64,000 nucleotides of DNA, from positions 2,767,373 through 2,831,372 of the forward strand of contig CAJINV010000009.1 of assembly GCA_905178155.1 (NCBI GenBank). The letters are read 5' to 3'. Both the position numbers and the translations under genes were made by a program. Of the stretch, positions 1-39,100 are shown one piece after another (the first letter of the stretch is position 1; every line of letters starts with the position of its first letter). The notes under the pieces were generated by a model, which was not told where the DNA came from, did not search any database, and was given only the letters and a program-made list of their open reading frames with translations. This DNA is from Amoebophrya sp. A120. Taxonomy: Eukaryota; Protista; Dinoflagellata.

Positions 1-111
1 GGTGTTTTCCCTTAGGATTTCTGCATTTACAAGTTTTCTCTCTCATGCAGAAAAATTTGTGTTGCTGAATTGACTACAAATGTGTAACTGTAACACTTTT
101 TTCCTGGGATA
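1..111. mobile_element. introner/MITE family C (truncated by window)
   Basis: right TIR ...CACTTTTTTCCTGGGATA. Confidence 0.8.
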
Positions 112-15100: not shown

Positions 15101-18100
15101 GAATTTTCATTGCGACGAAAAATCCCCCCTCCCCAGACCAAAGTGGGACGCTTTGTCATGCTGATTTGAGACCGCAAGTCGTCCCACCCTGTATTGCAAG
15201 AAGGTAAATCCAAAAACCCCGCCGCGTTCTCCATGCTGTATGGAGGATATGCCTGCCTTGCTCGGCGCCCACACCGAAACGCCCCTACTCCGGCTTTGTA
15301 TCTACTGCCTGCAGTCTTCTACTGCAAGACAAAGCCGATTTGTGTACACCAATCCCGCATCACAGATTTCCATTTCGATATATGAGGGGGGGTTTTATTT
15401 TGCCTTTTGATAATTCTCTTTCTGTCTTCAGACACGTCGACCTTAGGCGGCCTGTCCTCCAGCGCAGCTCGTGCTCCTGTCGCAGCGCCCGGCTCCGCCT
15501 CGGGAAAAGTGTTGGCCAGGTCACTAATATGAGAGTGCACAACCCTTCCTCTCCCTCATTTGCGAGGCAAAATGCAAAATCGTCCACGCGTTGGTCATAT
15601 TTGGCATCAAATGCATGACAAGTTCTCGATGCCCAAACCGCACTACAGTCCGTACGTGGATCATTTGTCATGCGACAGCCACATTTGAATTTGATGTGCC
15701 TTTTGCTACAGCTACTTGTGATGTTGACGGTTATGCTATACAAGTCAGGGTGAGGGGGCGGTGGAGTTGTGCACTGTCATAGTCACGGTTGGGCTTCCAC
15801 ACCTCGTATTTGTAATGAAGCTGGTACCGAAACTTGTCGTCGGGTGGTAGTACCTGCACCCATATGGCGCTCTCAAACGTTACATTCTCAACTGTTACAT
15901 GATTTGTCATGCAAAATGACCATGACCCGCCAGACGATCGAGCTGCTGCGCATGACAAGAGGGCTAAACAGCACTATTAAATCTTCCGCGCGAAACCTGT
16001 AATGCAAGACGCGCAAGGTTCTCCCTCTCGCCTGTGCTAGTCTTGCGTTGCAAATTCATGGAACAGTTGAGAGTGTAACAGTTAAGAGAACGCCATAACC
16101 CAGAAACCTCCCTTGTACCACCGTGATGGGTCCGTGACGGGCTGCCCCGGAAAGCCCAGCATATTTTCAATCGTCTCCTTATGGAAGCGTCAGGATTGAA
16201 ATCGTCAAAGTTGAAATAGTTTGTGATGCATAAAGTGCAAGGCAGAAATTGCCTCTATTGCAGAGGACGCAAGGGATGCAGATTGTAAGCCTGTTGCGGG
16301 GTAGAAATTGAGGTATCCACAGAAAATTTCCCATCCCCATCCACAATCCGGTTTTTTTAATGAAAAAATCAATCAATTTTTCAAAAAAAAAATAAGGTGC
16401 GGAAGGTAACGGCTGGACTATGTGCATCATCATTCCGATAGCTAGCGACGTCTCCCGGAAGCAAATAGGTTTAGGTATTAAGTAGCTAGATCTTCCAAAC
16501 ACACATCAGATAAAGTCGGTCAATGCCAGCGACGCCAGAGCCTGGGCCTACCCCTCGGAGAACCACGCTGGCCCCATGTCGTAATACGGGCGGGCCTGTT
16601 TGTGTCAGAAAATTTCCCATCCACAAGCCGATTTTTCGGATTTGATGAACAATCCGAGACCATTTCATCTCCGGTCAACAGCAAAAAATCGCGAAAATTG
16701 AACAACATTTTGAAAATCAGCCAAAATGAGCGAAAAGCGGCACTTTTTGAAAGTGGATGGGAAATTTTCGTACGGTGCTACGGTGAATTGAAAAATCTCC
16801 CATCCACTCACTTCTCTCTAGAAATGAGTGGATGGGAGATCTTTCAATTCACCGTAGCACCGTACGAAAATTTCCCATCCGCAAAAAAATGGTAGCGAAA
16901 ATGCTCAAATTGTTCACCATCATTCAATTTTCAAAAATTTGTGGATGGGAAATTTTCGTACGGTGCTACGGTCAATTGAAAAATCTCCCATCCACTCATT
17001 TCTCTTTAGAAATGAGTGGATGGGAGATTTTTCAATTGACCGTAGCACCGTACGAAAATTTCCCATCCACGATTTTTGGGAACACGATTTTTTTTCGAAA
17101 GTTGCACAATTTTCAAATATTTTGAAGGCCCGAGCAAGAAAATTATCGAGAGTGTTCGAGAATTTTCGCCGCGAGCCTTCCGAGGCAAAATCTCAGCTTC
17201 ATTTGAAGCCGAGCCAGCACCTTATGCTGCCGAGCCAGCGTGGTTCTCCGAGGGGTAGGCCCAGACTCTGGCGTCGCTGGCACTGACCGACTTTATCTGA
17301 TGTGTGTTTGGAAGATCTAGCTATATACCTAAACCTATTTGCTTCCGGGAGACGTCGCTAGCTATCGGAATGATGATGCACATAGTCCAGCCGTTACCTT
17401 CCGCACCTTATTTTTTTTTTGAAAAATTGATTGATTTTTTCATTAAAAAAACCGGATTGTGGATGGGGATGGGAAATTTTCTGTGGATATGAGGTGCTAA
17501 GGTAGCATAACAAAAGACGTCCTCCTTACCCAAACAGCATTACAAACGGGATTTCAGTCCTACCCAAATTTGTCATGCGTCACTTGAAAACTAGGCGCCA
17601 ACTGGTATCCGTTTTATGCACCACAAATTATTTCAATTCTGACGATTTCGATCCTGACACCCCCATACTCCTGGCTGGGAGGCACCGTCTGTCCGAGGCC
17701 GAGCTGCGCGGGCCTCCTGATTTGTTGGTTGTCCATCGCTATCGAGTGCAAAAATATCTGGGTCTGGATCTGGAAGAGTCCGAACGTGTGATGCTGCATT
17801 TGGATTCCCAAAAAGTCTGTATTGCATGAGCAGCAAAGGGAATGCAATCTTTGCTGAGCGGAAAGGGCATTTGTCATGCGGAATAGGCATCAAGATGCCC
17901 TCACAAAATCTGTGACGCTAGGGCATGCATCACAGACATCCTGGGTCACGCAAAACGTGCACGACAAGTCTCAGAATCTTCCAGACCCAGATGACATATT
18001 TGCATTTGATAATCGCCCCGGAATACGGATCGATAGCCTCGCCGTCCATATCCTTGCGGGTCAGGGGATAATCGAGGTAAAGCCCGTCCTTCTCTTCTCG

Positions 18101-21100
18101 CGGCGGCTTGAAGGGCGCAAAGCGTGCCAGGTTGTGCATTTTCTCGTCGTGCAGAGTATGGCGTTCTCAAATGTTACATTCTCAGCTGTTACATGGATTT
18201 GTCATGCAAAATGACCATGAGCCACCAGACAATGACGCTGCTTCGCATGACAAATGATTCTCGGAGGGCTAAATAGCACTAGAATCTGCACCAAATCTGT
18301 AATGCAAGACGCGCAAGACTCTCCCTTTGACCTGTGCTATTCCTGCATTACAGATGCATGTAACAGTTGAGAATGTAACGTTTGAGAGTTCCATACAGAG
18401 TCCGCGGGTCGTAGAGGGGCGGGAACCCCTTTTCCCCCGGAAGAAGGGGAGAAACGTATTGCACTGAAAAATGCCCCCATCCCCAAAGTTGCAGTAAGTT
18501 GCGATGCGAAGTTTCCAAATGAAAACTTTTTGTCATGCAGGAAAGAAGTACGAATCTTTCTGATGCATCGCTTGCATGACAGGCGCCGCGCTTGCTGAGA
18601 CATTTATTTGGAATGCAAATTTTTGCTACTCACGATGAAAAATCATCTGTGACGCTGATAGATGCATTAGGGCGAATGTTTCACAAGGAAAGGCAAAGGT
18701 TTGCACAATACAAATAATCCCAAGTAATTCTGCGGCGGGGGCATAATTTTTCATTGTAATAAAACGCCGGGCGGGTAGCTGTCGGGCGGTAGATAGGGGC
18801 TCAATGGCGTATCGGGATGAGCGATTCCGTCCGGCCCCGGTATGGCGTTCTCAAACGTTACACTCTCAACTGTTACATGATTTGTGATGCAAGAATGGCA
18901 ACAGGGAAAGGCCGGATCTTGCAACTCTTGCATTACAAATTCGGCACAGATTCCCATGCTGTTTAGCCCTTCCAAAATTTGTCATGCGAGGTAGCTTCAC
19001 TGTGTGGACGTTAATGCTCATTCTGCATGACAAACCATGTAACAGTTGAGAATGTAACAGTTGAGAACGCCATACCCGGGGGGGCGCCCCTGTAGAGGTC
19101 GGTCGCGGCACCCGGACCGGTGTTCCTGAGGTCTGGGGGTTGGTCTATCCTGACTAAAAACGTCTTCGCGCCAGAGAGAGTTGTGGCCATGCAAATTTGC
19201 ATGCCCAATAAATTGTGTCTCATGCGTAGGCCCCACGAGGAGCATCTTCTCATGCTGTCTGGGGCTTTGTCGTGCTCTAATCAGGATGAGGGGCTAGATT
19301 CGTAATGTAGCTTTGCTTTTGCTAGTACCCAAGCACGATTATAATACAGACGCAAACTTGTCATGCGCAACAGCCAAAACTTGAACTTCTCCATTTGTGT
19401 TCGCAAAATTCCCATCTTGGCTCTGTCTCTGGCATGGAGACATTTTTCCTCAGGATATGGTCAACATTTCCTGGCCGCTCAACTTTCCGAGGGTCGCCGT
19501 AGAGTGGATGGAGAAGCCCCTTTCTATCTCAACTGCAAACATGTCTGGGTCTGGAAGAGTCTAAACTTGTCATGCAGATTTTCCATGACGCATGAGGTCT
19601 GGAATGCGAGACCTAGCATGACATAATGTCATGCCTATCCTGCATGAGAAACTCCCTGCTCCCAACTCGGTCGAAAGTGGACAGCTTTTGATGCTCATGC
19701 AACATCACAGATTTTCGCATGATTCGAATGTAGCACGACAAGTTGCAATGTAATCTTCCAGAGGACCCAGAAGACATAGTTGCAATCCATATTTTGCGGG
19801 GCTGCTGGGGTGGACGAGGCGCGTCTTGTGGTAGAGGATCGACATTTTCACGTTCTAGCGTATGGAGGGATTCTCAACTGTTACAACATTCTCAACTGAT
19901 GTTACATGAATTTTCTGTGTGGGGACGCAAGAGTGGCAAAAGAGAAAGAAACGAAGGAGCCTCCGACCTCCGCATCACAAATTCAGGACAGACAATTTGC
20001 ATGCTGTTAGTTTAGAAGGCCGGCGAGATGAATTACTATACATTATATTCATGCGAAAAAAGAGGTAGACAGAGGGTCCCAGAGAGGTGGCCGAGAGGTA
20101 AAAAAGAGGTCGACAGAGGTAGAAAAGAGGTCGACAGAGGTGGAGAGGTGGCGCGGGACCCCGTTCGAGAGGGTCCGCGAGAGGGTGCGCGAATAAGGCC
20201 CGCAGTAAGCGCCCACCCTTAGGCGCCGCCTAAGTGGCACAGAGGGTGCAGAGAGGTCAAAAAGAGGGGGCGCGAGAGGTCGACAGAGGTGGAGAGAGGT
20301 GTTGCGAATAAGGGGCGACCTCTCGCGGACCCTCTTGGCCACCTCTCGGCCACCTCTGTCGACCTCTACCCGCGAGTATAGCCGGATTATTAGCAGGGAC
20401 CCCCAAAAGAGGTCAAAAAGAGGGCCTGCGAGAGGTCTGCGAGAGGGTAAAAGCACAAAGAAGCGGGCGCGAATCCGCATGGTAGTGCCCATATTTGGCA
20501 TTGCAGGCCATTCGCGGACTTGTTTTGTTCGGCGCCTTTCCGTGCCACCCTCTCGCGCACCCTCTCGCGCCACCCTCTCGCGCCACCCTCTCGCGCACCC
20601 TCTCGCGCCACCCTCCCGCGCCACCCTCTCCCGCCATGCGGCTTCTGTTCGCCCCCGGCGTTTTTTGCAGCTGCTCCCTGCGCAGAGCGCCCACAGGCGC
20701 GGGAAGCGCGCAAGTGGTCCTGCGGCTTGGCGCGGCGCAAATCGGCGGCAGGAATCCAGTACGTTTCGTTGTCCCTACTAGGCCCGTGGGGTTGTGGTCC
20801 GAGCGGCAAACAGCCTTGCCCCGGCCCAACAGCCTTGCGCTCCGGCGGCAGCCGGAGCATGGCTGGTTTCTTGTCATGCGAACAAGTGGCTTGATCGTGA
20901 TAGATGTCAACTCAATACAATCCATCGACTGCGATGGTACTAAGTGAAAATGTGCATCACAAATTCATGACACAGTTGAGAGCGTGACGGTTGAGAACGC
21001 CATATAGCGGTTCTGGCCCACGACCGTCTCCACCTCCACCAAAGAGGCCACCAATTGTGTATCTCGGCGACCCATACTTGTCGCTTCCTGACTACCAAAT

Positions 21101-24100
21101 GCAAAAATGTCTGGGTCTGGAAGAATGCAAACTTCTCATGCATATTTTCCATGCCCCATGAGGTTCGGAATGCAGGACCTAACATGACAGAGTCTGTGAG
21201 ATCTCTGTCATGCCTATCCTGCATGAGAAACTCCCTCCCAGCTTGGTCGAAAGAAAGAGGACAGCTTTCGGCTGCAGCCATGCAACACAGATTTTTGCCT
21301 GATTTGATTTTAGCACGACAAGTTCCAATCTTCCAGACCCAGACATTTTTGCCATTCATACTGACGCTTTCGCAGCTGGTCCTCCAGGTTCCGGCGCGAC
21401 CGTCAGACCAAAGCTGCCCCACATCGAAGCATCCTGAGAATCGCCATCGTCGTAACCTTCAGGAAAACCTGCTTCGTGGTCATCTGCACGGCCTTCGCAG
21501 AATGCACGCAGAAATTCGCCATATTTGGAGAAGTGGGTCGCGTCCTCCGTAGCTCCTGCTGCTTTCGAGGAGGAAGCACTCTCACTAGCAGCTGAGACCT
21601 TGACCTGCTGCAGCAGCCCGAGCAGGTAAAACCCAGCTTCGAAAGGCGAGAACATCTCAAGAAGGATATCTTTATTATGCCGCCCCCCGGCAATATCCCA
21701 CGAAAAAAGTGTTTTACAGTTACACATTTGTTGTAGTGAATTCAGCAACACAAATTTCTCAGCATGTCATGCTTACCCATCAGCATGTCATGCTTAGGAT
21801 TTTTGCATTACGAGTTTTCTCTCTCATGATGTAATGCAAAAATCCAACGGGAAAACACCTCCCATGAAACGAGGCTCCTACGCATATCCGGCATGTTGAC
21901 CGGGCTTGTCTGTGGTCTTGCTTGGCCTGCAACACAATGTTCATAGTGTAACACTTTTTTCTTGTGATAGGCAAGGTGCGTGGACGGCAACGCGAAATTC
22001 TTGTGCACGCGCGGCACGTCCGAGAGAAATATGGATTGCAAAAGTATCGTACTCGTATAAATGCATTACAAATTTCCTCAGCGTCAGCATGAGAAATAAA
22101 ATTTGTAATGCGGATTTAGCTTCAGAACAAAATTTGTAATGCATGTTTGCAATTACTACGAGTACGATACTTTTGCAGTTCATAAGAAACTGGTACTCTT
22201 GACGTTGAGGCTCGCGCATGTCCATGTCCCCCAGTTGCCCCACGCGCGCGGCCACTTTCGCGCCATCCTGGTCGGTAATGACCTTCAGCGGCAAAATGAT
22301 CGAGCCGGGCGGCAGCTCATGACGCGCAGGGTCGGGTGGGGTGATGCGGTTCGTAGGGTCTTCGGTTCCCTTACTAGGCGTGCACGTTTTGTACCACTTA
22401 CCTATCATGGGTCCATTTTTATCCTTCGCGGGGAATCCACCTTCAGCATTCGTCTATGCATTGCAAAAGTATCGTACTAGTATAAATCGCATGACAAATT
22501 TGCTCAGCATGAGAAATGAAATTTGTCATGCTGTTTTACCTTGGAAAGGAGATTTGTAATGCATGATTGCAATTACTACGAGTACGATACTTTTGCACAG
22601 GATATCGTCATCACCTCATCGATCTCTTTATCCTTTAGTATTGAAAGGAAAAATCCCCCCTCCCCACATTGAAAAGGCACGACCTCGAAAATTTGTGTTG
22701 CTGATTTGAGGTCACAAATCATTTTTGTCTTGCAAGAAGACAAGGGCAGGAACTTTAGCCCCATTCTGGAAGCGGTTTGTGATGCTGTTGGGCCTAAAGG
22801 GGAGCCGTTTGCCATGCTAAACAACTAGACACATTATACGCCCCCATCTAGCCTGGAGATCTGTCCGCAGTGCCTCTCTGCAATACAGAGCTGATTTGTG
22901 TACGCAAATCCAGCATCAGAAACTTCCTTTTGATATTGGGAGGGGGGATTTTTCCTTTTGATATTTAGCCGCATCCTGTTGCAGGGAATTCCCTCGCCTT
23001 CTGCTTCGACTAAGTCATTATCCTGAGCAAAAGCATTGCACTCGTACTAATTGCAATAAATATGCAAATCTTCTTCCTAAGGCTAAGGTAAAACAGCACT
23101 ACTAATGAATTCCACTTTTCTTCTTCCTAATGCAATTTGTATTTGTACTAGTACGATGCTTTTGCAATGCCTAGTCGGCGGTCCAGGTTTCTTTCCATTC
23201 ACCCGACCCCGGCGGTGGCCTCTCCTCACACGCACACTTGGTCTTTGTCGTGTATTGTGAGGAAAAATCCCCCCTCTCCATACTGAAAAGGCATGCCCTT
23301 AAAAATTTGTGATGCTGATTTGTGACAACAAATCCTGTCTCTCTTGCAAGGGGGCAAATCAAAAGAATCCGCCGCCTTAATATGCAGGCGATTTGTAATG
23401 CTGTTACGGCTACATAGCAGGCCTCTGATATGCTAAGCACCTACGCCAAAACACTCCTGCACAGGCTTAGGCTTTGCCTGTAGTGCCTCACTGCAAGACA
23501 GATGTGATTTGTGTACACAAATCCCGCATCACAGATTTCCTTTTTGATATGGGGAGGGGGGATTTTTCCTTTTGATATCGTGTCCAGTTTGCACTTCGGG
23601 TCCTTCAAGTGGCAATCTCGGTGCAGCGTAAACGCATAAAGGAGCCAGGACATCGGCAGCGTCTCGCCAATTTTAGCCGGCTCACGAGCAGCGTCGCTGG
23701 TGTCGGGCCCGGTAACACTGGGATAGGTTAGAAACCCGTTGTTGTGGTGTATGAATTGCAAAAGCATCCTACTAGTAGTATGTAATCGCATTACAAATTT
23801 GCTCAGCATGACAAATGGAATTTCTCATCCTGATTTACCTTGAGAAAGAGTAGATTTGTCATGCATAGTTGCGATTACCACGAGTACGATATTTTTGCAA
23901 TTCATATGGTGCTTCCACCACCGATGCTTCCACCAGGAGGCGACGTGCCGCTTATCAAATGCAAAAGTGTCTGGGTCTGGAAACTTGTGATGCTGGGTGG
24001 CGTCTCATGATGAGGCTGCAAATGCTGGCTCAGCATGACAAGTTTCTGAGCTCCTGTCCTAGGTGTTGCCTATTCTGCATGACAAACTGCGCGTCTGCAT

Positions 24101-27100
24101 CACAGAAAAACGGAGCTCTTGGGTAACGTGAATGACAGATTTAAGAGTCATGCCAGACAAGCATGACAAACGTGAATTCTTCCAGACCCAGACATTTTTA
24201 CAGTTGATACCGCTGGTAGTTCACCCACTGGTAGATCCAGAGCTGCGTGGACACACGCTCCTCGCTGTCGTGCTGCGTGGTATGCATTGCAAATATCCCT
24301 GGATGTCTGAGAACCTGTGATGCAAGGAAGGGAATAGTGAGCACACTGTAATGCGCTGCGCAGCATGGCAAGTTTTTCCGAGGTTCTGAGTTGCGTACTC
24401 CGCATGAGGAACTGCGTTTTTGCATGACAGGCAAGCGGAGCTCTTCGCGGCCACGCAGTACAGAGTTCAGAGTCATGCCAGACTAGCATGACAAATCTCG
24501 CAATCTCCCTCACCCAGACATATTTGCATTTCCATTTGATACGTGGTCGCGAGGTGCCAATCGTCCGCGTATCCTATGTAAAAACTACCAGGCCCACGCC
24601 CCATAGTCATCAAGATGGGAAATCTGCTAGACAAATCAGCCAACTTTGCCTTTGGTCGTTGCCACGCATGATGACAAGTTTGGCCTCGTAGCGTATGCGT
24701 GATCCTATGTAGCTAAGTAGCTCCAGAAGCATCACAGATCTAGCAGATCATGCTGATTCGAGCATCACAAATTCCAAAACACAAGTAGAAAATGCTTCAT
24801 CTCATGGGGCTCCGCATGAGAAACATTGTTAATACCATGCAGATTTGCATGACAACCATGGGCGGGTGTGGGCCCCGCTTTTCGACAGGATACCGAGGCA
24901 AAAATCACCATGCGGGCCAAGGTATCCTGTGCAAAAGTATCGGACTCGTACAAATGCAACTCCAGCATTACAAGTCTTCTTTCCAAAGGAAATCTGCATT
25001 ACAAATTTTTCTCATGCTGACGAAGTTTGTAATGCAGCTATACGAGTACGATACAACTTTTGCAATGCAAACAAGGGATTCCACTCCAGGCCCCGCGCTG
25101 CAAACCCATCCACGCCACACATCGTGGTCAGCGGCGGACACATCTGGGCGACCTTCTTCTCCGCAGGAGCGTCTTTTTCTCCCTTTGGGGCTTGGTAACG
25201 AGTTCTCTGGCAAATCTCTGTCACCGGAACCACCAAGCCAAGGTGGTTCTTCCTGTTCGCAGCTGCACCCCCGCCTCCCTTGTTCGCGCCCGAGCTGGTC
25301 CCAAACAAAAACCTGTCCCAATCCCTATGAACTGCTCAAACGTTACAATCTCAAGCGTTACAATACATAGAATCTGGGATTTGTCTTGCAATATGAGCAC
25401 GACAGACTCACAGACCATTTCACTTTCTGCAACACAAATTTCGGCAGATTCTAGTGCGGTTTGGGACTCCGGGACTTGTCATGCGCAGTCCTATGAGACT
25501 TGGCTAGCTCATGCACTTCTTGCATCACAGATTTCCAAATTTCCAAATTCTATTGTAACGTTTGAGATTGTAACGCTTGAGCAGGTCATAATCCCGGAGT
25601 ATAGAAAGAAAAAAGTTTGTCACAGTCATTAACTTGGAGATTTAGCATTACAAATTTTTTTAGCATCACAACTTTTCCTTGTCTTGCAGAAACACTAAGG
25701 CAAATCTCCTATGAAGTGTGGCTGTGATGCATTTTTACGCATGACAGGCATTTTTTGTATTGCAAAAATGCCCATGAGTGATCGTGACGAACTTTTTTCT
25801 TCTGATACGGAGCGAAGATTTTGCATTGGTGTACAGCCCTTTCATATGCAAGAAAAAAACTGTGTAAGTGTAAATCTGTAATGCAGAACACGCAACAGAG
25901 TTACACTTGTCATGCCAGATAGCCATGAAGTTCTCTTTTCATGTGTGTTTTCCCTTACAAGCCACGCATGACAGGCTTCCTCTGTCATGTAGAGCAAATT
26001 TGTGATGCTGTTCCTCAAAGAAAGTTACACTTACACGCTTTTTTTCCTGGATATTTCATATCGTACGAAAAAAGCGCTTCAGTGTAAGGATTTTGCAAGT
26101 TTTGCATCACAAGTTTGTTCTACATCACAGAGAAAATTTGCCATGCGACATCATTCCTAGGGGAAAACACAGCTAAAAATTTAGTGTCTTGCATGTGTAG
26201 CAAGACAAACACTTCTCAGTAGATGCAGTTTCTGCATTACAAGTTTACATTGAAACAGTTTTTTCTTGCGATATTTCATCGGTGCCAACCCAAGTTGTCC
26301 GGCGAACTGGCTTCGCCACCCGTTATCCTGTGCAAAAGTATCGCACTCGTATAAATGCAAGTCTTGTATTACAAATCTTGCTTTTAACGCAAATCCGCAT
26401 GACAAATTTTATCTCTCATGCTGAGGAAATTTGTAATGCATTTAAACGAGTACGATACTTTTGCAGTTCATATCCGTGTTTGTGGCCCCACTCCGCTTTC
26501 AGAAAGGTCAGCACTCGTTCTGCGTTGACCAGGCGACCGGGTTCTTCGGCCGATCCGTCGAGAAAAAAATCGCTAGGTGTATTACAATGAAAAAAGCCCC
26601 CAACCCGAAATTTGAATAGCTTCTCATGCGTAAGAATTTCAGACGAAGAGCTTTTTATCTATGCATGAAAGCCTGCCGAGTCTTCCTGGTGCAGAACCTA
26701 GACTGCGCAAGGGATAATCTTTTGCATAAACAGACCCGGCTGCTGGCGTTGGGCTCCTTTGCAATACAGACGCGCGCTTTGGCTAATCAGCATGGAAAAT
26801 CAAAATTTGTGATGCTGATACTTATTATATCTATGCAAGACCGAGAAGGTTTTGGTTTCCATTGGAAAGGTTCGGAACTACAAGAATACAAATGCTGCCA
26901 AATTCTGGCGGGGCGGTCGCATTTTTCATTGTAGTAGGGCGCGCCGCCAGGCCACCACTTTACCCAGGCCTCCGCGATTTGCTTCTGATTTTCTTCGGCG
27001 GGGGGCATCACGTCGCTTTTGCTCGGGATCCCATCTTTTTCTACAAATCCTACAAGGTTTTGAGCGATATGACACCCTCAGAATGGAAATCCTCAAAGTG

Positions 27101-30100
27101 GAAATAATTTGTGATGCATGAAATGCGACACCAAAAAGACTGCATTGCAGAGAACGCAATGGAGGCCGACTATTGTGCTTCTACGGGTTCAGAATTGCCC
27201 TGCTGATTAGCATGAGAGAAGGGCACCCCTTTGCCTAACTAGCATGACAGACACGCTTTGAGTGCCCGGGAAATTTGTCATGCGCCGACTATACATGGTG
27301 CTCCAACTGGAGTCGTTTTTTTGCATTACAAATTATTTTCACTTTGAGGATTTCCAACCTGAGGCTTTCATAAGCGAGGCGCTGCGCGTACTCCACAGGG
27401 AACCCGATTTCGTTCTCGAGTCGGTGTTATCAAAAAGAAAATAAATGCCCCCTCTCCATATCCAAACGAAAGCTCTGATGCTGGATTTCCGTACACAAAG
27501 CAGATTTGTCTTGCAGTAGAGGACTGCAGGCACATCCCAAGCCTGGGCTCAGAGGTTTTGACTTAGGCGCCTACCATGTTGACAAATGTCTATGCCATAG
27601 TGCAAGCAGCATCACAAACAGCCTGCAGAGTGTCAATGTGGCGGACTCTCTGGGCTTGTTACCTTCTTGCAAGACAGACAGGGTTTCTATTCTTGTGGTC
27701 ACAAATCTGCATCACAAACTCTCGGACGGATGCGCTTTCAATACGGGAAGGGGGGATTTTTCCTCACCATAAGTGTCGCGCCCTTTCCTCTTTTCTCACC
27801 CGGTCCGCTTTTGCCGCCTTGTCTTGATCCGCGGCGCTTCCTGTTATGAAATGCAAAAATGTCTGGGTCTGGAAGAATGCAAGATTTGTGATGCAGGTTT
27901 TCCATGATCCATGAGGTCTGGAATGCGAGACCCAGCGTGACAGATTCTCTGAGGTCTCTACCATGCCTTTCCTGCATGAGAAACTCCCTCTCAACTTGGT
28001 CAAAAGCGGACAGCTTTTGGTACTCACGCATACACAGATTTTTGCATCGTTCAGATTTAGCATGACAAGTTCTAATCTTCCAGACCCAGACATTTTTGCA
28101 TTTGATACCTGTTATTTTTGGGAGCGGCTCTTGCCCCGGATCCTTCCGGCAGTTTCCCCCCAGTAGGTGTGCGACACTGCGCTTGCCTTCTAGGGGGTTC
28201 TGAGCCTCCTGCACCGCAGTCTGCTCCGTGACTACCAGCAGCTCCACATGCATCAGCTTCAGTATTAAGGAAGAAAGCTCGGTGCCGCGGGTGAGAAACC
28301 CGAGAATCGCACCGACCGAATTCCGCGCCGCGTTGCCACTCGCGTCCAACAGAATCCGTGCATTTTTCCTCCGCCAGTCTCGGTGAAGGTGTGCTACTGC
28401 TTTGTCTTCTATCACTTTTTTGCTCTTCTCCTGGAAGATTTGTTCTATTGTCTTTACGTGTTTTTCTCGCCCGCCGGGGCTTGTAGGCCTCACAGCCATG
28501 GCTTCTTCTAGAAAACTTTCCCTTCTCTGCTCCTTGTCAGCCCTCGTTTTTTTCTGTTCTTTTCGTCGGTTTTGATCTTCCTGCTGCAGTCTGCGCACCT
28601 CTTCGGTACTCACGGAGAGCCGCGTCGCCGCAGCCTCGAGCTTTTTGTCCGTCTTCGTTTTTATCGCGAGAAAAAAGCGTTATAGGGACACATTAGGTCG
28701 TTGCAGGCCAAGCAAGACAGACAAGCTCTGTCTGTCATGCCGGATATGCATAGGCCGCGCCTCGTTTCATAGGTGTTTTGTTTTCCCGTAGGATTTCTGC
28801 ATTACAGGTTTTCTCTCTCATGCAGAGAAATTTGCTTTGCTGAATTCAACACTTCAAATCAATGTGTAACTGTAACACTTTTTTCCTTGGATAGTTTTTA
28901 CCAAGGAGAAAAACTGTGTAAGTGTAACTTTGTAAGTAAGAGCAGCATCACAAATTCGTTTTGCATTGCAGGAAAAACCTGTCATGCGCAGCTAGTACGT
29001 GGAAACACGTATGATAGTAGCCTATGACGCACTTCCAGCATGACAAGCGTAAGGTAACTGTTTTGCATTTTCTGCATCACAGATTTACACTTACACAGTT
29101 TTTTCCTTGGATAGTTTTCCGCTTCGCCTCAATATCCGTGTCATCCCAATCGCCCGCTTCGTCAGCATATCCAGCGCAAAAGTATCGCACTTGTAGTAAT
29201 CGCAATCATGCATTACAAATCTTTTTGGTTTTGCTAAGGTCAATCAGCATTACAAATTCTATTTCTCATGCTGAGGAAATTTGTATATGCAATTCATACT
29301 AGTTGTACGATGCTTTTGCAACTCATACAGCACCGTCGTCGTCCTCGTCCGGAAAAAGTGCCCGGATCTTTTCTGAATCAAGGGCTCCAGGCGACAAGGG
29401 CTTCAGCTCAGTTTATCAATGTGAAAAATTCCCCCTCCCCATGTTGAAACCGAAATTTCTGTTGCTGGACTTGTGTACACAAATCAGCTCTGTCTTGCAG
29501 TGAGGTACTGCAGGCAAAGCCTAGACCTGCGTAGGGGTGTTGTGCTGTAGGTGCTTAGCATAGCAGAGGCCTGCCATGTAGTTGTAGGCGCAACAGCATC
29601 ACAAGTCGCCTGCGTATTAAGTCGGCGGATTCCTTGGGTTTACCTTCTTGCAAGAGAGGCAGGATCTGTGGTCACAAATAAGCATCACAAATTTTCAGAA
29701 ACATACCTTTTCAGTATGGGGAGGGGCGGGGATTTTTCTTCACAATACACTTGGCACGGGCTGGACCACCCGATCGGGCGCGTGGTACTGAAAGCGGTAC
29801 GCGTCCGCGCTTCCGCGGAAGAAGGCCATGGTATGGGGTTCTCAAACGTTACACCTTCAACTGTATACATGATGCGTCATGCAAAATGTTGACCATGAGC
29901 CACTAGACGATCAGGCTGCTTCGCGTGACAAACTCTCGGAGGGCTAAACAGCACTAGAATCCACACCAAATCTGTAATGCAAGACGCGTATGGCTCTCCC
30001 TCTCACCTGTGCTATTCTTGCATTGCAAAGTCATGTAACAGTTGAGAATGTAAGGTTTGAGAACGCCATACATGGCCACAGCCTGCTGCAGGGGCGGATA

Positions 30101-33100
30101 CGTGCTCGCCAGCCACTGGCACAGCTCTTCCAGCGTGAGTTCGTCCTTGTTCCACTTTTCGCGCAAGCCGTCGCCGTGCTGCAGCCGAAGGTTGCACTTA
30201 TCAACTGCAAAAGTGTCTGGGTCTGGAAGAGTCGGGACCTGTGGTCATGCACATTTTGCATGACCCGTGAGGTCACTGAAGATGCAGGTGCTAGCATCAC
30301 AGATTTTTTGAGAGCTTCTTGATGCTAATTACGCATGAGAAATGCCCTCTCCGCGTGCCAAGAACTGACTCACTCGTCTTGCTGCTCATGCAACACAGAT
30401 ATTTTTAGAATCCGCAGACAGCATTACAAGTTCCACTCTTCCAGACCCAGACACTTTTGCAATCCATAGCACTTCGCCGCAAACAAATCGCGCACAGCTT
30501 GGTGAAAGCCCATGTTCTCTGTGACTGCTTCTCCATCGTTGTGCTTATCCTGCATCTTGAGACGACTATCCCAGTTTGTAGAACCTTGATCAGGTGGAAT
30601 TTCCATTCCCCCTGCACGCAGGACTCTGTCATCGGTATGCAATCCATCTGCACCTACAAGCTTCTCGAAACCGCCGGAAGTCCGGGGCCGGAGAAACCCG
30701 GCCAGGTAGGCCGCAGCCTGCCAGGCGGTCCAACCGGACTCGTCCACCAGAGACGGCGCGCGACGCGGTATCAAAATGAAAAAAGCCCCCAGCCCATATC
30801 AAATGGGAGGTCTGTAATGCAGGATCTGCGTACACAAATGCCCGCTGTCTTGCAATACGGCATCGCAGCCAGATCCGCAGCCTAGGGAGGGATGTTTGGG
30901 TCTAGGTGCTTAGCATTGCACGCGGCTGTCCTCTAGGCCCAACAGCATGCCAAATCGCTCCCATAATGGCGCGGAAGCCTCTGCATTTGTTTTCTTGCAA
31001 GAAAGAGGTGCTTTGTGGTCTCAAATCAGCAACACAAATTATCGGAAGCATGCTTTTTCGATATGGGGAGGGGGGATTTTTCCTCTCAATACGCGGCGGC
31101 CCCGTCAGGCTCGCGCGCCACGTGCGGGGCTGCCACATACCCGCCTGTTGGCCGGGGAAGTAGTAGTCCCGGTGCAGACTCTTCCCGCCGCCGTCGTGAC
31201 GCAGGCTCGTTCTGGTGGACCAGGAGCCCCATAGCGGTAACACAAGGCCCGTGTCATAGGGGAAGACCGGCGGAACTTCCGTGGGGAAGGGAACCTCGAA
31301 GAACATCTTCTCGTCCCTTGTTGAGTCGTCGTTATCAAGTGTAAAAATGTCTGGGTCTGGAAGAGTCATGCTGTTTTTGCATGACACAGAAGGTCTGGCA
31401 TGGAAGCTCTAGCATCACAGGTCTCGAGAAGCGTTCGCAATGCCGAATCCGCATGACAAACCCCTGACTTTGGTGACAGAAAGTGGGCAACTTTTGCTGC
31501 CTATGCATGAGAGATTTAGATTTTTCTGTGTTCTGAAATGCGCATCACAAGTTGCATTCTTCCAGACCCAGACATTTTTACATTTGATAGTCGTGGGGGT
31601 GGCACCACTGCGTGACCACGTCCCGGCGCGCGGCCGCCACTTTATCAAATGCAAAAGTGTCTGGGTCTGGAAGAGTGGAACTTGTAATGCTGTCTGCGGA
31701 TTCTAAAAATATCTGTGTTGCATGAGCAGTAAGTGTAAGAGGAGTGAGCTCGTGGCACGCGGAGAGGGCATTTGTCATGCGTAAGCATCACAAGCTCTCA
31801 AAAAATCTGTGATGCTAGCACCAGCATCACAGACCTGATGGGTCATGCAAAATGTGCATGACAAGCCCCGACTCTTCGTCCAGACCCAGACATTTTTGCA
31901 TTTGATACACCTCGCCAATCTCTAGGTCGTGCAGTATGGCGCTCTCAACTGTTACAGTCTCAGCTGTTACATGAATTTGTGATGCAAGAATGGCAAAAGT
32001 CAAAGGGGTGACCTTGCGCGTCTAGCATGACAGATTTGGCACAGATTCTCAACCTGTTTGGCTCTTCGAGAATTTGTCATGCGAAGCAGCTTGATCGTAT
32101 CAATTCTAATAGTGATTTTGCATGGCAAATCATGTAACAGTTGAGAATGTAACGTTTGAGAACGCCATATGCAGGTCCCAGGGATTCTCCCAAGGCAGTC
32201 CCCGGCCCCCGGGCGGGTGCACGGCGTTTATTAGCACCAACCTTTTGCGGAGGCCCCCACCGTACTCGTTTGCATCACCAGCGTATCCAGAGAAACACGC
32301 GTTATACAGTTAAGTACACATTGCGTTGCAAGCCCAGTATGACAGACAACTTCTGTCATGCGAGAAATGCTTCCGAGCTTTATTTCATCTGTGTTTTGCC
32401 TTGTGGTCTGTGCATTGCAAGTTTTCCCTCTCACGCAGAGAAGATTTGTGTTGCTGAATTGACAACAGATGTGTAACTGTAACACTTTTCTCGTGGGATA
32501 CAGCGGCAGCGGACGCGCTTCCTCCGCCGGGCGGCGTTTTACCAAGACCCCCTTGGATTTTCTCCGACCCGGCCTTGTTGATATCCAGAAAAAAAAACAC
32601 CCATCCCCATCCCATTTGTCATGCAAAACATGCATGAGCTGCAGTGTTTGTCATGCAACAAATGGATGGGGATGGGTGTTCTATTTTTCCTGGATAGTTG
32701 ATGCGGCAAACCTCCACCTCGCCGTCGTGGGAGTTGCCACGCGGCACGCAGTATGCATGGCAAAATGTCTGGGTCTGCAAGATTGATGCCACTTGTCATG
32801 CTAAATCCGAATCATGCAAAAATCTGTGTTGCATGAGCGCCAAAAGCTGTCCACTTTTGACCTAATCGAGAGGCAGTCTCTCATGCAGGATAGGCATGAT
32901 AGAACTCTCACAAAATCTGTCATGCTATATCCTACATACCAGACCTCATGGGTGGTCATGGACGACCTGCATGCATGACAATAAATCTGGCATTCTACTT
33001 CCAGACCCAGACGTTGTTGCACATTTGCTACGCAGCCGGTGTTGGCAAGGTAGGGGTCAAAAAGCATAAGCACGGCGCGCCCGAAAGACTGCTCCGGCTC

Positions 33101-36100
33101 GGCCGCCCCCAGTATGCACTGCAAAAGTATCGCACTCGTATAAATGCATTTACAAATTTCAACAGGATGAATAACATTTGTAATGCTATATCTCCCTTGA
33201 GAAAAAGGTTTGTAATGCAAGACTTGCATTAGCATTTATACGAGTGCGATACTTTTGCACAGGATACCCAGTCCTGCCGGTTGATTCGTGTATGCATTGC
33301 AAATATGCCTGGGACTGGGTCTGGAAACATGGAACTTGTAGTGCTAGTCCTACATTCCTGTATAGATCTGTATTGCATGACCAACAAAGAAACGCCCTCT
33401 TTTGTCACATAAAAGCGCGGCTTGTCATGCGGATTGCGCATGGCAAGGTCTTCGGCAAACTTGTCATGCTTGGCTGCCTTGGGAAGTATTTCGGTCGTGC
33501 ACAGTTCAGCATCACAAGTTTCCAGACCCAAACATATTTGCATTTGATATCGTGGAAGTGAGAACCAGCAACTGGGTGGACGCGGGAGCGATTTCTTTCC
33601 CTTCCCGCGAAGATGAACTCTGCGCCGTTTGATCCAGTGCCTCCCGCTGGTTCCAATCCAGGGCAGCCAGGACCCCCAACAGCTGCTCGCGTAGTTCCAC
33701 CGGCGCATTGGTCATGTCGAGGACGATTTTTTGGATCCTGCGCGTCACGGCGTCGTCATACCCAAGCGCCACTAATTCCCCCATTTTTTTCTCGGCCTCG
33801 CCCGTGGCTCGTTTGCAGTGTGGGTCGCCCTTATCAAAAGGAGAAATCCCCCCTCCCCATATTGACAGGGTACGTTTTCGAAAATTTGCGTTGCTGATTT
33901 GTGGCCACAAATCGTCTCTGTGTTGCATGAAGGCAACTCCACAGGCTCCGCCGCATTCTACAGGCGGCTTGTCATGCTCATTTTTCTACAGCGTAGACGC
34001 CTGTCATGCCAACCGCCTAGGCTAAAACCTGTCTTCTCCGGCTTGATATGGGCCTGCAGTCCTCGCCAGCAAGACAGATCTGATTTATGTACGCAAATCC
34101 AGCATCAGAAACTTCGTTGTGATATGGGGAGGGGGGATTTTTCATTCTGATACTCCTCGGCAGATGACAAGGCCCCGGCTCCGCCCGGCCGCCGCAGACG
34201 CTTTGCCAGGCGCGCTTCGGTCAGACCCCGACCGAGCACCCGGCAGCAGAAATTATCCCGCGCGCGCGCGTATCCAGTGCAAATATGTCTGGGACTGGAA
34301 ACCTGTGACGCAAGCAAAGGAATAGTAAGCACACGACTGTAATGCGCTGCCACGCATGACAAGCTCTTCGGTGCGTCTGAGTTGCGTACTCTGCATGAGA
34401 GCCTGCACTTTTGCATGACAGACAAGACGAGCTCTTCGCGGCCACGCAACACAGAGCTCAGAGGCGTGCCAGGCTAGCATGACAAGTCTCGCAATCTCCC
34501 AGACCACCCAGACATATTTGCATTTGATAGTCCAGTTACCTCGTCGAGGGGCGTTTGTTCCTCGAGGTACTCTGTACTGTCGCACAGTTTGCCCATGACC
34601 TATCGTGAGGAAAAGTCCCCCCTCCCCATACCAAATGCGGACACTTCTGAAAATTTGTCATGCGGATCTGTGACCACAAATCGTCTCTGTATTGCAAGAA
34701 GGCAAATCAAGAGACTCCGCCGCATTTTGCAGGCGGTTTGTGATGCTGCTGGACCTACAGGGGAGAAGATCTCTGTCATGCTAAGTGAAAGTGCCTACGT
34801 CAGAACAGTCCCTCCCGGGCTTTGTATCTGCCTGCATTCCTCCACTGCAAAACGCCGCTGATTTGTGTACACAAATCCCGCATCACAGATTTCGATTTCG
34901 ATATGGGGAGGGGGGATTTTTCGTTCTGATATGACCTCGCGCATCATTTGTACACCATTCCTGGGTTCGTCATCGAATGCGCGCGGGACAACAAGAAACC
35001 CGAGCAGGTAGAGGGCTGCACTGTCTATCAAGTGTAAAAATGTCTGGGTCTGGAAATTTGTAATGCTAAGAGTGAATGGGAGTTCCACTGCAATACGGAG
35101 CCAAGCATGACAAATTTTTGCGCTCCTATGTGTTGCGTGTTGCGCATGGCAAACTGCGTTTTTGCATGACAGGTACGAGGACAGCTTTGTGTCCATGCAT
35201 CACAGATTCTTGAGCCATATCAGACATGCATGACAAATGTAGCAATCTTCCAGACCCAGACATTTTTACATTTGATACTGTCAGGCCCCCATCCAAACCT
35301 CTCCTCTCCTTTAGCATTCATGCCGGTCGACACAGGTTTCGTCCATTGATGTGGGTCAGTACCTTGTTCCTCGTGGCGTGGCGGCGGGTGTACGCGCGGC
35401 AGGTGGGGCAGGTACTCGTAGCGCCGGGAAGAAGCGCGCGGCTGCGCCAGCGGTTGACCCATTAGCGGCAGGATAGCCGCCATTTGGTTGTCTGGGCAGC
35501 GTGGTAAGTCATCGGGTTTGGGGCACTCCTTCAGAGAGCCCGGCCTGATCGTTACTTGTTGTTCCTCAGGGTTACTACTCAGGACCCCACCTTTCTCGTA
35601 TAGATTCCCCAGGTGTTCCGCTTGCCACGTCGTCCGCCCAGATTTAAATATGAAAGAGCAAGTGTCGCCCCCGTTTTTGCCATCGCGATGTTGCTTTCTC
35701 AAACCAACGTCATCCGTTGCGGGGACGGCAGGACGCATGTGCTTGGGGGAATCGCCGCTGTTTTGCAGTACTGCTACCGTGTTCAAACGCCAAGGCTCCT
35801 GGTTCCCTTGTTCGTCTGAACCCAACAACGCCCCCTGTCCTGGTAAAGACAATCTCGCGACACTGGAAGTAACTACCTGGCCGGTCGACAGCCACTCAAG
35901 AGGACCAGGAGAGGTAGGAGGAGAAGACGCGTCCGTCGACCATGGGCGCCACGGAATCCAGGCGGAACGGCTGGCTTTCCGTTCCTCCAGGTACGACGCT
36001 GATGCCGCGCCGCCCAGTCCATCCGTGGCGGCTTGTCCCTCTCGTCGCGCCGAAGTTGTTGTGGTGAAATTGCTCTTCGTCTCATCTTCTGCGGGCTCCT

Positions 36101-39100
36101 TCATTTTGACGTCAGACGAAGGCGCTCCCGAAGGTGTCTTCGACTCCAGATAGGATGAATCTGAAGACGCGGCTGACGCACGAGCCAGAGCGCTGCCGCC
36201 CCCAGTAGAAGGTGAAGAGCTAGAGCGTCCTGCAGGAGTTGCACCAGCCTCGGCATGATCAAAACCGCCGGGCAGCTGCGCCACCGACGTGGATGTTGAT
36301 GTTGGTGCCATGCTTTGACTCAGTTCATTTGCTCCCGCTGCACTTTGGCTTCCACTTCGTCCGCCTGCCACCGCTGTGCTAGTAGCTCGCGACACATCAA
36401 CATCCGGGGCTGTTTCTCGTCGTCGCAACAGTTCTAGATCTGGGGCTGCAGCTTCTGCTTGGCGGTCGTCTTTAATACTTGGCAGCTCAGTAAAGGAACC
36501 GCGACCGCCCAAGAATTGCCGCAAAAGCCCCGGCGCAGCTTTCTTAGCTGCACTTTCAACGTGTTCGTACTCAAACTCGATGTCATTCTCACCTGCGTAC
36601 TCGAAAGAGTATTTCGGTACTACTACTTCTGTACCGCCGCTGGACTCAGCTGCGGTATGTGGTTTGCAACACCGCTGTTGCTTCCACCGGACGTCGCAAT
36701 CTTCAACGGGATTCACCAGAAAAAGCTATCCAAGAAAAAAACTGTGTTAGTGTAACTTTCTATCGAAGAATGCCATCAGATCACATTCACAAGTTTGCTC
36801 CTCTGCATGACATCAGAGTGAGAGAGCCTGTCGTGCGCGGCTAGTACGGGAAAAAACGTACGAAAAGATGAGCCTCTGACGCAGGTCCAGCACGACAAGT
36901 GTAGTTCTCCTTTGCGTTTTCTATTTCTGCATCTCAGACTATACACTTACGCAGTTTTTTTTCTTGGATAAAAGCCACTGCATGTCTTCTGTGTTCCATT
37001 GGACGTAGGGCAAGAAGTCCCACTGCCCGTTGGTCTTGGTCCACCACTTCCCCTATCCTGTGCATAAGTATCGCACTCTTATTGTTATTGTAGTCATACA
37101 TTACAAATCTTTTTCTTAAAGATAAAGTAAATCCGCAGTTTCTCATGCTGAGGAAATTTGTATATGCATTTATACGAATACGATACTTTTGCACAGGATA
37201 TCCCCGAGAAAATGTGTTCCGCGTAGTTCACCCAGTTGTAGAGGAACGACGTGAACTTCTTCTGGGTAAAAACATCCCCACCCCAGAGTTGTCATGCAAA
37301 TGCGCATGCCAAAAAAGTTTCTCATGCGAAGCCCCACGAGAAGCTTTTTCTGGTCGTGTTTTGGGATTTGTGACGCCAAAAGTAGCACGATGCGCCAGAT
37401 CTGTGATGCTGCTGAACTAGCTAAACAGGATTACAACACTACGAGGACAAGTTTGTCATGTGACATAGCCAAAGTTGGCTGATTTGTCTAGCAGATTCCC
37501 CATCTTGACTCTGGTACGTATGGGGACGCTTTTACACAGGATAGAACTGCAGCCCTGAACCGGAGGAAGCAGCAGAGTCAGCCCCTTTTCCTTTGCCACT
37601 GTTAAAGAGCACATAGAGCCCAAACGGATTGCTCGGGCGGTGGCCGACCAGGCCGCCGCAAGCTGTTGTTCCTTGAACCTCCCGTGAGCCATCAGGTTCG
37701 TACGTTGTTGGGATTGCACCTGGACCTGGCGCCGAATCAGACTGCCCATAAACCGCTGGGGTTGCTCGGAGCTTGCGGAGTGGAGAGGGAGAAGAGACTG
37801 CGTTTTTTTCACGAATAGGCTTACAGTCTCCACCGAGCACATCCGCGACGAACGCGACCGGGTTCTTCGGTTGCTTAGGATCGAGAGCTCCCGTTGGCTA
37901 TCAACTGCAAAAATGTCTGGGCCGGGAAGATCGCCAGGTTTGTCATGCAAATTTTGAATGACCCATGAGGTCTGTGAATGTGATGCATGCCCTAGCATCA
38001 CATATTTTTCGAGGGCTTTGCGATGCCCCTACCGCATGAGAAATGCCCCCTCCGCGTAGCACATCAAGAAACTGGAGTCCTTTTACATACTGGTCACGCA
38101 ATGCAAATTTTTTCGGAATCCGGAGACAGCGTCACAAGTTAAGAACCTTCCAGACCCAGACATATTTGCAATCCATATTGGCGTCGCCACGACGATTTCC
38201 ACGTGAAGGGCATTCAAGTTTTCCGGTGTCAGGTCCCCCGCGGCTTCCAGGACCCTCAGCATTGCTTCGAGCTCCTGCAAGCGACGTCCTTCTGCATCAG
38301 TACGAGAACCCGCAACAATCGACGCGTCGATGACAATTCGTGTATCAAAAGGAAAAACGCCCCCGCCCCATATCTAAACGAGGTTCCTAATGCTGGACTT
38401 GCGTACACAAATCAGGCCTGTGTTGCTGGAGAGGACCACTGCAGCCATATGCTGAGCCTGCGTAGGGACTTTTTGGGGTAGGCGCTGAGCATGTCACGCG
38501 TCTAGTCTGTAGGGCCAACAGCATCACAAACCGCCTGCAGAATGCGGCGCAGCCTGTGGCGTTGCGTTCTTGCAAGACCAGAGGCGATTTGTGATCACAA
38601 ATCAGCATTCCAAATTTTCTAAGGCGTACCTTTTCGATATGGGGAGGGGGGATTTTTCCTTTTGATATCGTGCGTTCCGTCTTCTCCAGTCCACTTCGGG
38701 ATCGCGCTCGTTGTTCGCCACATCACCGTGAGCGGGAGGTGGCGTCAAAAGCTTCCCTCGCCAAACCGCAGGGTATCGGTACGCTGTGTGATCTATGGAT
38801 TGCAAATTAGATGTCTGGGTCCGGAAGATTGGAACTTGTCAATTGCTAAATCTACATCATGCAAATGCAAAAATCTGTGTTGCATGACGAGTGCCAAAAG
38901 CTGTCCACTTTGGACCAAGTTGGGAGGGAGTTTCTCATGCAGCATAGGCATGACAGAGACCATCTCACAGAGGCTGTCATGCTAGGTCCCGCATTCCAGA
39001 CCTCATGGGTCCTGGAAAACCTGCATGACAGGTTTTTTACGCTCTTCCAGACCCAGACATATTTGCAATTGATATGATGCTCGTTGCGGTCCTTTTCCTC

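Follow-up and report, generated by a model that had tools for sequence, protein, structure and literature searches.

Introners of Amoebophrya A120 are very probably excised at a single register within the target-site duplication, with an invariant T at intron position +2

Introners of A120 and their closest described counterparts

Introners with TAT...ATA ends and a 5-bp target-site duplication (TSD) have been published for the A120 type of Amoebophrya, a marine parasite of algae (Farhat et al. 2021, PMC7789003). According to the text and Table S4 of that paper, non-canonical introns make up more than 60% of the A120 total, the nine top non-canonical motifs of A120 all begin N-T and the nine of A25 all begin T-T; the exact borders of the introners were left open, the splice sites being called variable relative to the hairpin, and the splicing mechanism stands in print as an open question. 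The same text reports U2, U4, U5 and U6 together with 83 of 89 proteins of the A120 spliceosome, U1 being not detected. U2-type introns with a short and fixed distance from branch to AG, as described in the relevant parts of PMC2483917 for Yarrowia, Giardia and Trichomonas, resemble the A120 elements in having U at +2, A at +3, no pyrimidine tract and a branch A (a candidate in A120) 6-8 bases from the end, whereas they keep the +1 G, a strong branch motif and the AG at positions (+1, -2 and -1) that are free in the A120 elements. The nonconventional introns of euglenids, as presented in the text of PMC11282704 and PMC11170887, share with A120 the anatomy of terminal inverted repeats (TIRs) and TSDs, paired ends with a 3' overhang (pairing being predicted in A120) and the absence of GT-AG; they differ in their CAG/CTG motifs, junction base preference and circular products, where A120 has TAT/ATA, no junction preference and a single invariant T at +2. 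Likewise, the non-canonical introns of Fritillaria borealis and the introners of Polarella, Symbiodinium and Aureococcus, in the accounts given in PMC11282704 and bioRxiv 2020.10.14.339549, are MITE-derived, with cuts inside the TSD and a tolerant spliceosome (as would hold for A120), but need dinucleotides (AG-AC/AT; a GH donor plus AG) from the target or the element, whereas the A120 target is unconstrained.

The window analysed here is a stretch of 64,000 nt of A120 DNA. Its catalogue, built from terminal repeats, contained 122 elements and, with six registered by hand, reached 123 top-level elements, with a perfect 5-bp TSD in 84/123 and mismatched copies in 39/123. G precedes TAT in 45/123, AG forms the final two bases in 6/123 and U is found at +2 in 123/123 of this final set, counts that lie near the 125 elements, about 40 mismatched TSDs and 47 GT of the original prediction. 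A pattern scan of a second assembly (JACKZZ01 contigs) yielded 170 loci from 11 of 64 parts, amounting after merging to 480 kb and 428 elements of the same families as in the window, 327/428 with a perfect 5-bp TSD. One gene of this assembly (locus L045) shows 99% identity to the A120 protein P0001 over most exons, and 83/120 window elements are matched over their full length in the loci, with 74-93% identity among the first 40 matches listed. Arm identity is 0.96-0.97 at bases 1-3 and 0.93-0.95 at bases 11-13. As in the A120 introners described in the text of PMC7789003, the inverted repeats consist of TAT, seven variable bases and a run of at least three A, the direct repeats of 3-5 nt and the length are similar, and the elements belong to dispersed repeated families with many copies per gene; absence from mature transcripts is represented by the elements skipped in contigs of locus L020 (see below). 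The window elements are the published A120 introners, and the elements themselves were already known. What appears to be new here is the single register, written 4|1 for a cut between TSD bases 4 and 5, the strand-specific invariant T at +2 and the branch candidate; no statement on these three points is contained in the consulted text of PMC7789003, whose figures lie outside this scope and may show part of them, nor in that of PMC12130899, PMC11453091, PMC13326754, bioRxiv 2020.10.14.339549 or the literature searched, subscription papers aside.

Nearly all elements of the window lie in one gene:
77..58511, minus strand: host gene, one 7,987-codon frame once elements are removed, running past the window start; repeated modules and a TSP1-like domain

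Excision of the 123 elements with five bases each leaves a single frame of 7,987 codons (58511 to 77) whenever the crossover k, the number of upstream TSD bases kept, lies between 0 and 4, and k=5 splits it. The gene, with at least 7,987 codons and about 122 introners, probably encodes a giant secreted or surface protein. Pfam searches on 15 window exons returned TSP1 and a weak DUF only, a search for homologues of the window exons found none, and viral contigs and Rfam gave no match.

The register of excision

The original prediction placed the excision point at 4|1, giving introns of the form N-TAT...ATA-NNNN, and this placement held against the window frame, the spliced contigs and A120 proteins. 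The element at which k=5 splits the frame reads, on the minus strand as the sense strand at 27423-27776, ACACT-TATGGTGAGG...TTTTGATA-ACACC, with the following features:
27772..27776, minus strand: upstream TSD copy ACACT, bases 1-4 exonic, base 5 being intron +1; base 5 in the mRNA would give TGA
27428..27771, minus strand: introner element of 344 nt, starting TATGGTGAGG and ending TTTTGATA, with TAT...ATA terminal inverted repeats, of the TAT-N7-AAAAA-CCCC family
27423..27427, minus strand: downstream TSD copy ACACC, bases 1-4 presumably intronic, base 5 exonic
27424..27772, minus strand: putative intron of 349 nt, T-TATGGT...TTGATA-ACAC, comprising the element and five TSD bases, cut 4|1

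A crossover of 0-4 keeps the frame at this element (RHRLENE), and a crossover of 5 produces CAC TGA, as had been claimed; this is the only stop arising in the 7,987-codon frame, and among elements with at most two TSD mismatches the focal element is the sole informative case in the stop-codon test. Since another Amoebophrya reads stops as residues (PMC12005148, in the part concerned), the codon count of the host gene matters: its frame contains 181 TGG and 0 TGA, which rules out a reading of TGA as Trp. The 4|1 register of the intron at 27424-27772 is borrowed from related loci of the second assembly, through their spliced contigs and proteins.

Two further elements had been cited in favour of this register:
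3239..3540, minus strand: introner with TSD CCCTG/CCGGG, registered by hand; a cut of at least 4 is needed for the last Cys of the TSP1-like domain (LPPC)
42951..43262, minus strand: introner with TSD GGTGA/GAGGA; a cut of at least 3 gives AFVVVT

For the former, the requirement of upstream base 4 was borne out, and the exon preceding it has a spondin-type TSP1 match (E 2e-8, below Pfam's cut-off). For the latter, the upstream copy indeed gives AFVVVT, with V at this place in a paralogous module, and bounds the cut only to at least 3. At 42587-42880, k of at least 3 gives I and the paralogous module has the downstream-copy residue V, a conservative change that counts against 4|1.

A check of mismatched TSDs akin to the RNA check proposed was possible on locus L020, where 3/3 informative joints fit k=4. 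The contigs used (X1, X7, X8) come from one sample, are RNA only by guess and represent a strain a few percent diverged from L020; being assembled, they drop rare variants, so that minor alternative cuts could be hidden. Among the 15 listed of their 30 joints, four pass over ordinary GT-AG introns and seven over catalogued elements. The joint 9481>9638 (TSD TGCTC/CGCCC) bounds the cut to at least 4 and the joint 9830>10003 (ACGAT/ATAAA) to 3-4, both in X1, X7 and X8, and the joint 5755>6036 (AATCC/AATTC; X1, X7), with one further difference nearby, again to at least 4, bounds that intersect only at k=4. In all three RNA-tested elements of the second assembly the element is removed with five bases, at 4|1. 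Four L020 elements with perfect TSDs show the five-base ambiguity to be expected. The joint 5476>5698 was left out of the register tests, its downstream TSD being apparently partly deleted in the contig strain. X4 gave 0 reads on L020, and X4, X5, X6 and X1 over window 24001-44000 gave repeat-family matches only, with zero exon coverage. At 27068-27181, 28032-28107 and 28960-29009 of the window, hundreds of raw X4/X6 RNA reads carry introner-family sequence joined to other flanks, and these are taken as copies retained in abundant transcripts elsewhere.

Proteins point to the same register. At L045 4778-5081 (TSD GAAGG/GCACG), K is obtained only if k is at least 4, and K is the residue in P0001 of A120 and in P0002 and P0003 of A25; homologues with this motif have K in 28/46 and N in 1. 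At L018 607-850 (GAAGG/GAAAA), k of at most 3 gives K, k=4 gives E and k=5 gives G, and the A120 protein P0121 (72% identical) has E. A coding-likelihood test over 130 mismatches is weak, with 75 as predicted (p=0.095) and position 1 in the opposite direction (10 vs 16). Most of the register tests bound the cut on one side only; taken with the joints and proteins above, we regard the 4|1 register as very probable.

TSD mismatches are spread evenly over the five positions (30/32/28/30/31), and TSDs with 0-2/5 matching bases have a removal length of element plus five modulo 3 in 11/15 cases, 4 being unclear. This evenness, and the removal length kept in decayed TSDs, led to the rejection of TSD identity as the guide of the cut. 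Among indels at element ends, found by inspection rather than systematically, four measure three bases and the fifth just one:
5325..5668, minus strand: exception, an additional base separating the 3' ATA from the TSD; a strict ruler would frameshift

The extra base is an A, breaks the strict ruler and may be an assembly error. At L007 1030-1272 (TSD AACGT/ACGTT), an apparent one-base loss is accompanied by a compensating one-base gain, the frame call being weak; such compensation fits a ruler mechanism, which would require it.

Base conservation along the sense strand

Conservation was scored in a set of n=423, obtained from 521 scored elements by removal of 95 with weak strand calls or short open flanks, 2 duplicates and the element at 5325-5668; elements without flanks or with fewer than 2 TSD matches also fall outside it. 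The strand was called from the codon statistics of flanking exons with the elements removed, using a model partly trained on these sequences. Because k=4, the first T of the opening TAT is intron position +2. Two positions of the focal intron stand out:
27771, minus strand: invariant T at intron +2; 0/423 elements deviate, vs 16/423 at the mirror base, the A at the 3' end
27430, minus strand: candidate branch adenosine, the first A of the 3' ATA, intron -7; 4 deviations vs 12 at its 5' partner, p=0.077

The asymmetry at +2 (p=3e-5) is present in both sources (0 vs 5 in the window, 0 vs 11 in the loci) and is gone in a strand-blind control with loci oriented by the plus strand (5 vs 6). The T at +2 that had been predicted is found in 423/423 elements and is functionally fixed, and the element at 5325-5668, left out of the set, begins with T as well. 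In ordinary GT-AG introns of L020 and L045, 10/10 donors begin GTA, matching N-TA. The acceptors of these 10 introns are A-rich and lack a pyrimidine tract.

At their outermost bases, the elements depart from U2-type introns. The +1 G of GT, GC or GA donors, proposed earlier as a donor-like signal in the form of GT, occurs at chance level (136 vs 137 expected, n=423; window p=0.095 against exon G content), and the absence of a 3' AG consensus was confirmed (AG 36 observed vs 33 expected). The +1, -1 and -2 bases follow exon composition; AG enrichment and any +1/-1 pairing rule were rejected, the junction dinucleotides being as expected from that composition. Under the 4|1 rule, 13/423 elements become fully canonical GT-AG introns, which may explain the canonical introns with repeats that have been reported for A120, and 12/423 TSDs offer GT-AG at another register. 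One fully canonical GT-AG intron under 4|1 is yielded by the TSD CCAGG at L045 6001-6264.

At the third base of TAT (+4) and its partner A at -7, the difference in changes falls short of significance on these counts (p=0.077; 0.035 uncorrected, among 24 positions), and the counts at three strand-call thresholds are 12/4, 10/2 and 9/2. Three of the four elements with a deviating -7 A have, judged post hoc, an escape in a tandem junction, a 3-base extension or a TSD offering AG|GT; the remaining exception, L159, has CTA and a weak strand call. The bases ahead of the -7 A are often unlike a branch motif (TTG, GG, CC). That this A serves as the branch point has, in our estimate, a little less than an even chance.

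Possible machinery of removal

The explanation that we favour, and hold to be moderately probable, is removal from RNA at 4|1 by a relaxed major spliceosome, with U at +2, the -7 A as branch and a fixed 3' distance. The intron would begin with the single base ahead of the opening TAT and end with the fourth base beyond the closing ATA; the relaxed spliceosome would read the invariant U, the A at -7 would act as branch point, and its fixed distance would set the 3' cut. The terminal hairpin may bring the intron ends together, replacing recognition by U1 and of the AG, and the chemistry would be that of a lariat. A structure substituting for U1 has been described in spliced-leader RNA (PMC11170887, in the part concerned). 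Spliceosomal chemistry as such is likely, and a relaxed spliceosome would be the likeliest machine, as the +2 U and the -7 A are conserved crosswise with their predicted partners free to change, a pattern more suggestive of a spliceosome recognising donor and branch than of a hairpin-cutting enzyme at work. Since TAT...ATA reads the same on both strands, an element inserted in either direction and at any target would give a clean intron; elements are found inserted in both orientations. A more far-reaching version is tentative and in our judgement somewhat doubtful: a major spliceosome lacking U1, whose entire intron code would consist of U at +2 and a branch A placed exactly seven bases ahead of the 3' cut, +1 G and AG playing no part, so that transposon ends supplying both signals either way round would make any insertion a perfect intron. 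Against the favoured explanation, loss of both the +1 G and the AG lies far from known spliceosomal rules.

In its main rival, with the same 4|1 cut, a hairpin-recognising nuclease and a ligase would act independently of the spliceosome through a staggered cut, as proposed for euglenid nonconventional introns, and release circles or linear RNA. Both +1 G and AG are unused in the A120 elements, pairing of the arms is predicted (over the first 30 bases of 70 elements, mean probabilities of 0.45-0.91; the element at 27428-27771 has a predicted terminal stem and a whole-fold z of -1.76), the euglenid introns described in PMC11282704 and PMC11170887 likewise have paired ends with a 3' overhang and are released as circles, and U1 is the component that the text of PMC7789003 reports as not detected. 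Yet the sole fixed base, the +2 T, is also present in the GTA donors of the organism's ordinary introns, the spliceosome of A120 is nearly complete by the same text, and the terminal pairs show conservation of one partner only; such crosswise conservation argues for selection on base identity rather than on pairing. Selection for stem pairing was not detected, wobble-keeping changes numbering 150 vs 139 pair-breaking ones, which gives no support to the earlier idea that the TIR stem positions the splicing machinery. We consider a spliceosome-independent route unlikely. In a further reading, the spliceosome would fix the 5' cut at N|TAT and find the 3' cut either from the end of the hairpin or by scanning from some branch in the 3' arm other than the -7 A. 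Such a 3' cut would suit a signal at -7 that is no more than suggestive, the element at 5325-5668, which keeps the frame without a -7 A, and the variation of ATA at all three of its positions; it is nonetheless rather unlikely, the -7 A being less variable than its partner at every strand-call threshold and stem selection being undetected in the data above.

Departure from a single register is a separate matter. If the crossover varied among elements or molecules, at any point in the direct repeat or at the nearest GT/AG, 4|1 would be merely the common case, in keeping with the one-sidedness of most tests, the minor forms that contigs hide, the sites called variable relative to the hairpin in the text of PMC7789003 and the TSDs offering GT-AG at another register. 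Such variability is very improbable, as RNA and protein tests all intersect only at 4 and a T that never varies at its fixed place implies that the 5' cut is fixed too. Removal of the elements from DNA, by transposon excision or ciliate-like elimination, would agree with their transposon anatomy and with X1, X7 and X8 being RNA only by guess; but these contigs are missing the four ordinary GT-AG introns as well, and the conservation runs with the direction of transcription, disappearing in the strand-blind control, which leaves this last reading with next to no probability.

A single register would fix the annotation of tens of thousands of A120 introns and explains why the reported A120 motifs begin N-T. 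It makes clear, too, how exons can be colonised by a family of transposons that is under no target constraint, and through the predicted branch point the published question of the splicing mechanism becomes directly testable. If the spliceosome is responsible, its active site accepts any base at +1 and -1. We know of no structural model of the second step that expects such tolerance.

A separate gene fragment at 62401-64000 on the minus strand, without a Pfam match, contains one introner (63354-63598). In the tandem element pairs of the window at 25845-26273 and 28662-29113, the middle TSD is common to both elements, leaving a zero-length exon, and the pairs would undergo either recursive splicing or removal as a single intron. 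At 25590-25600 two elements lie nine bases apart, for which the 4|1 rule predicts a micro-exon of 4 nt. Nested insertions, with an introner within an introner, are found at 16180-17667 and 53586-54046, and the former also contains an inverted-repeat element of a different type at about 16451-17352.
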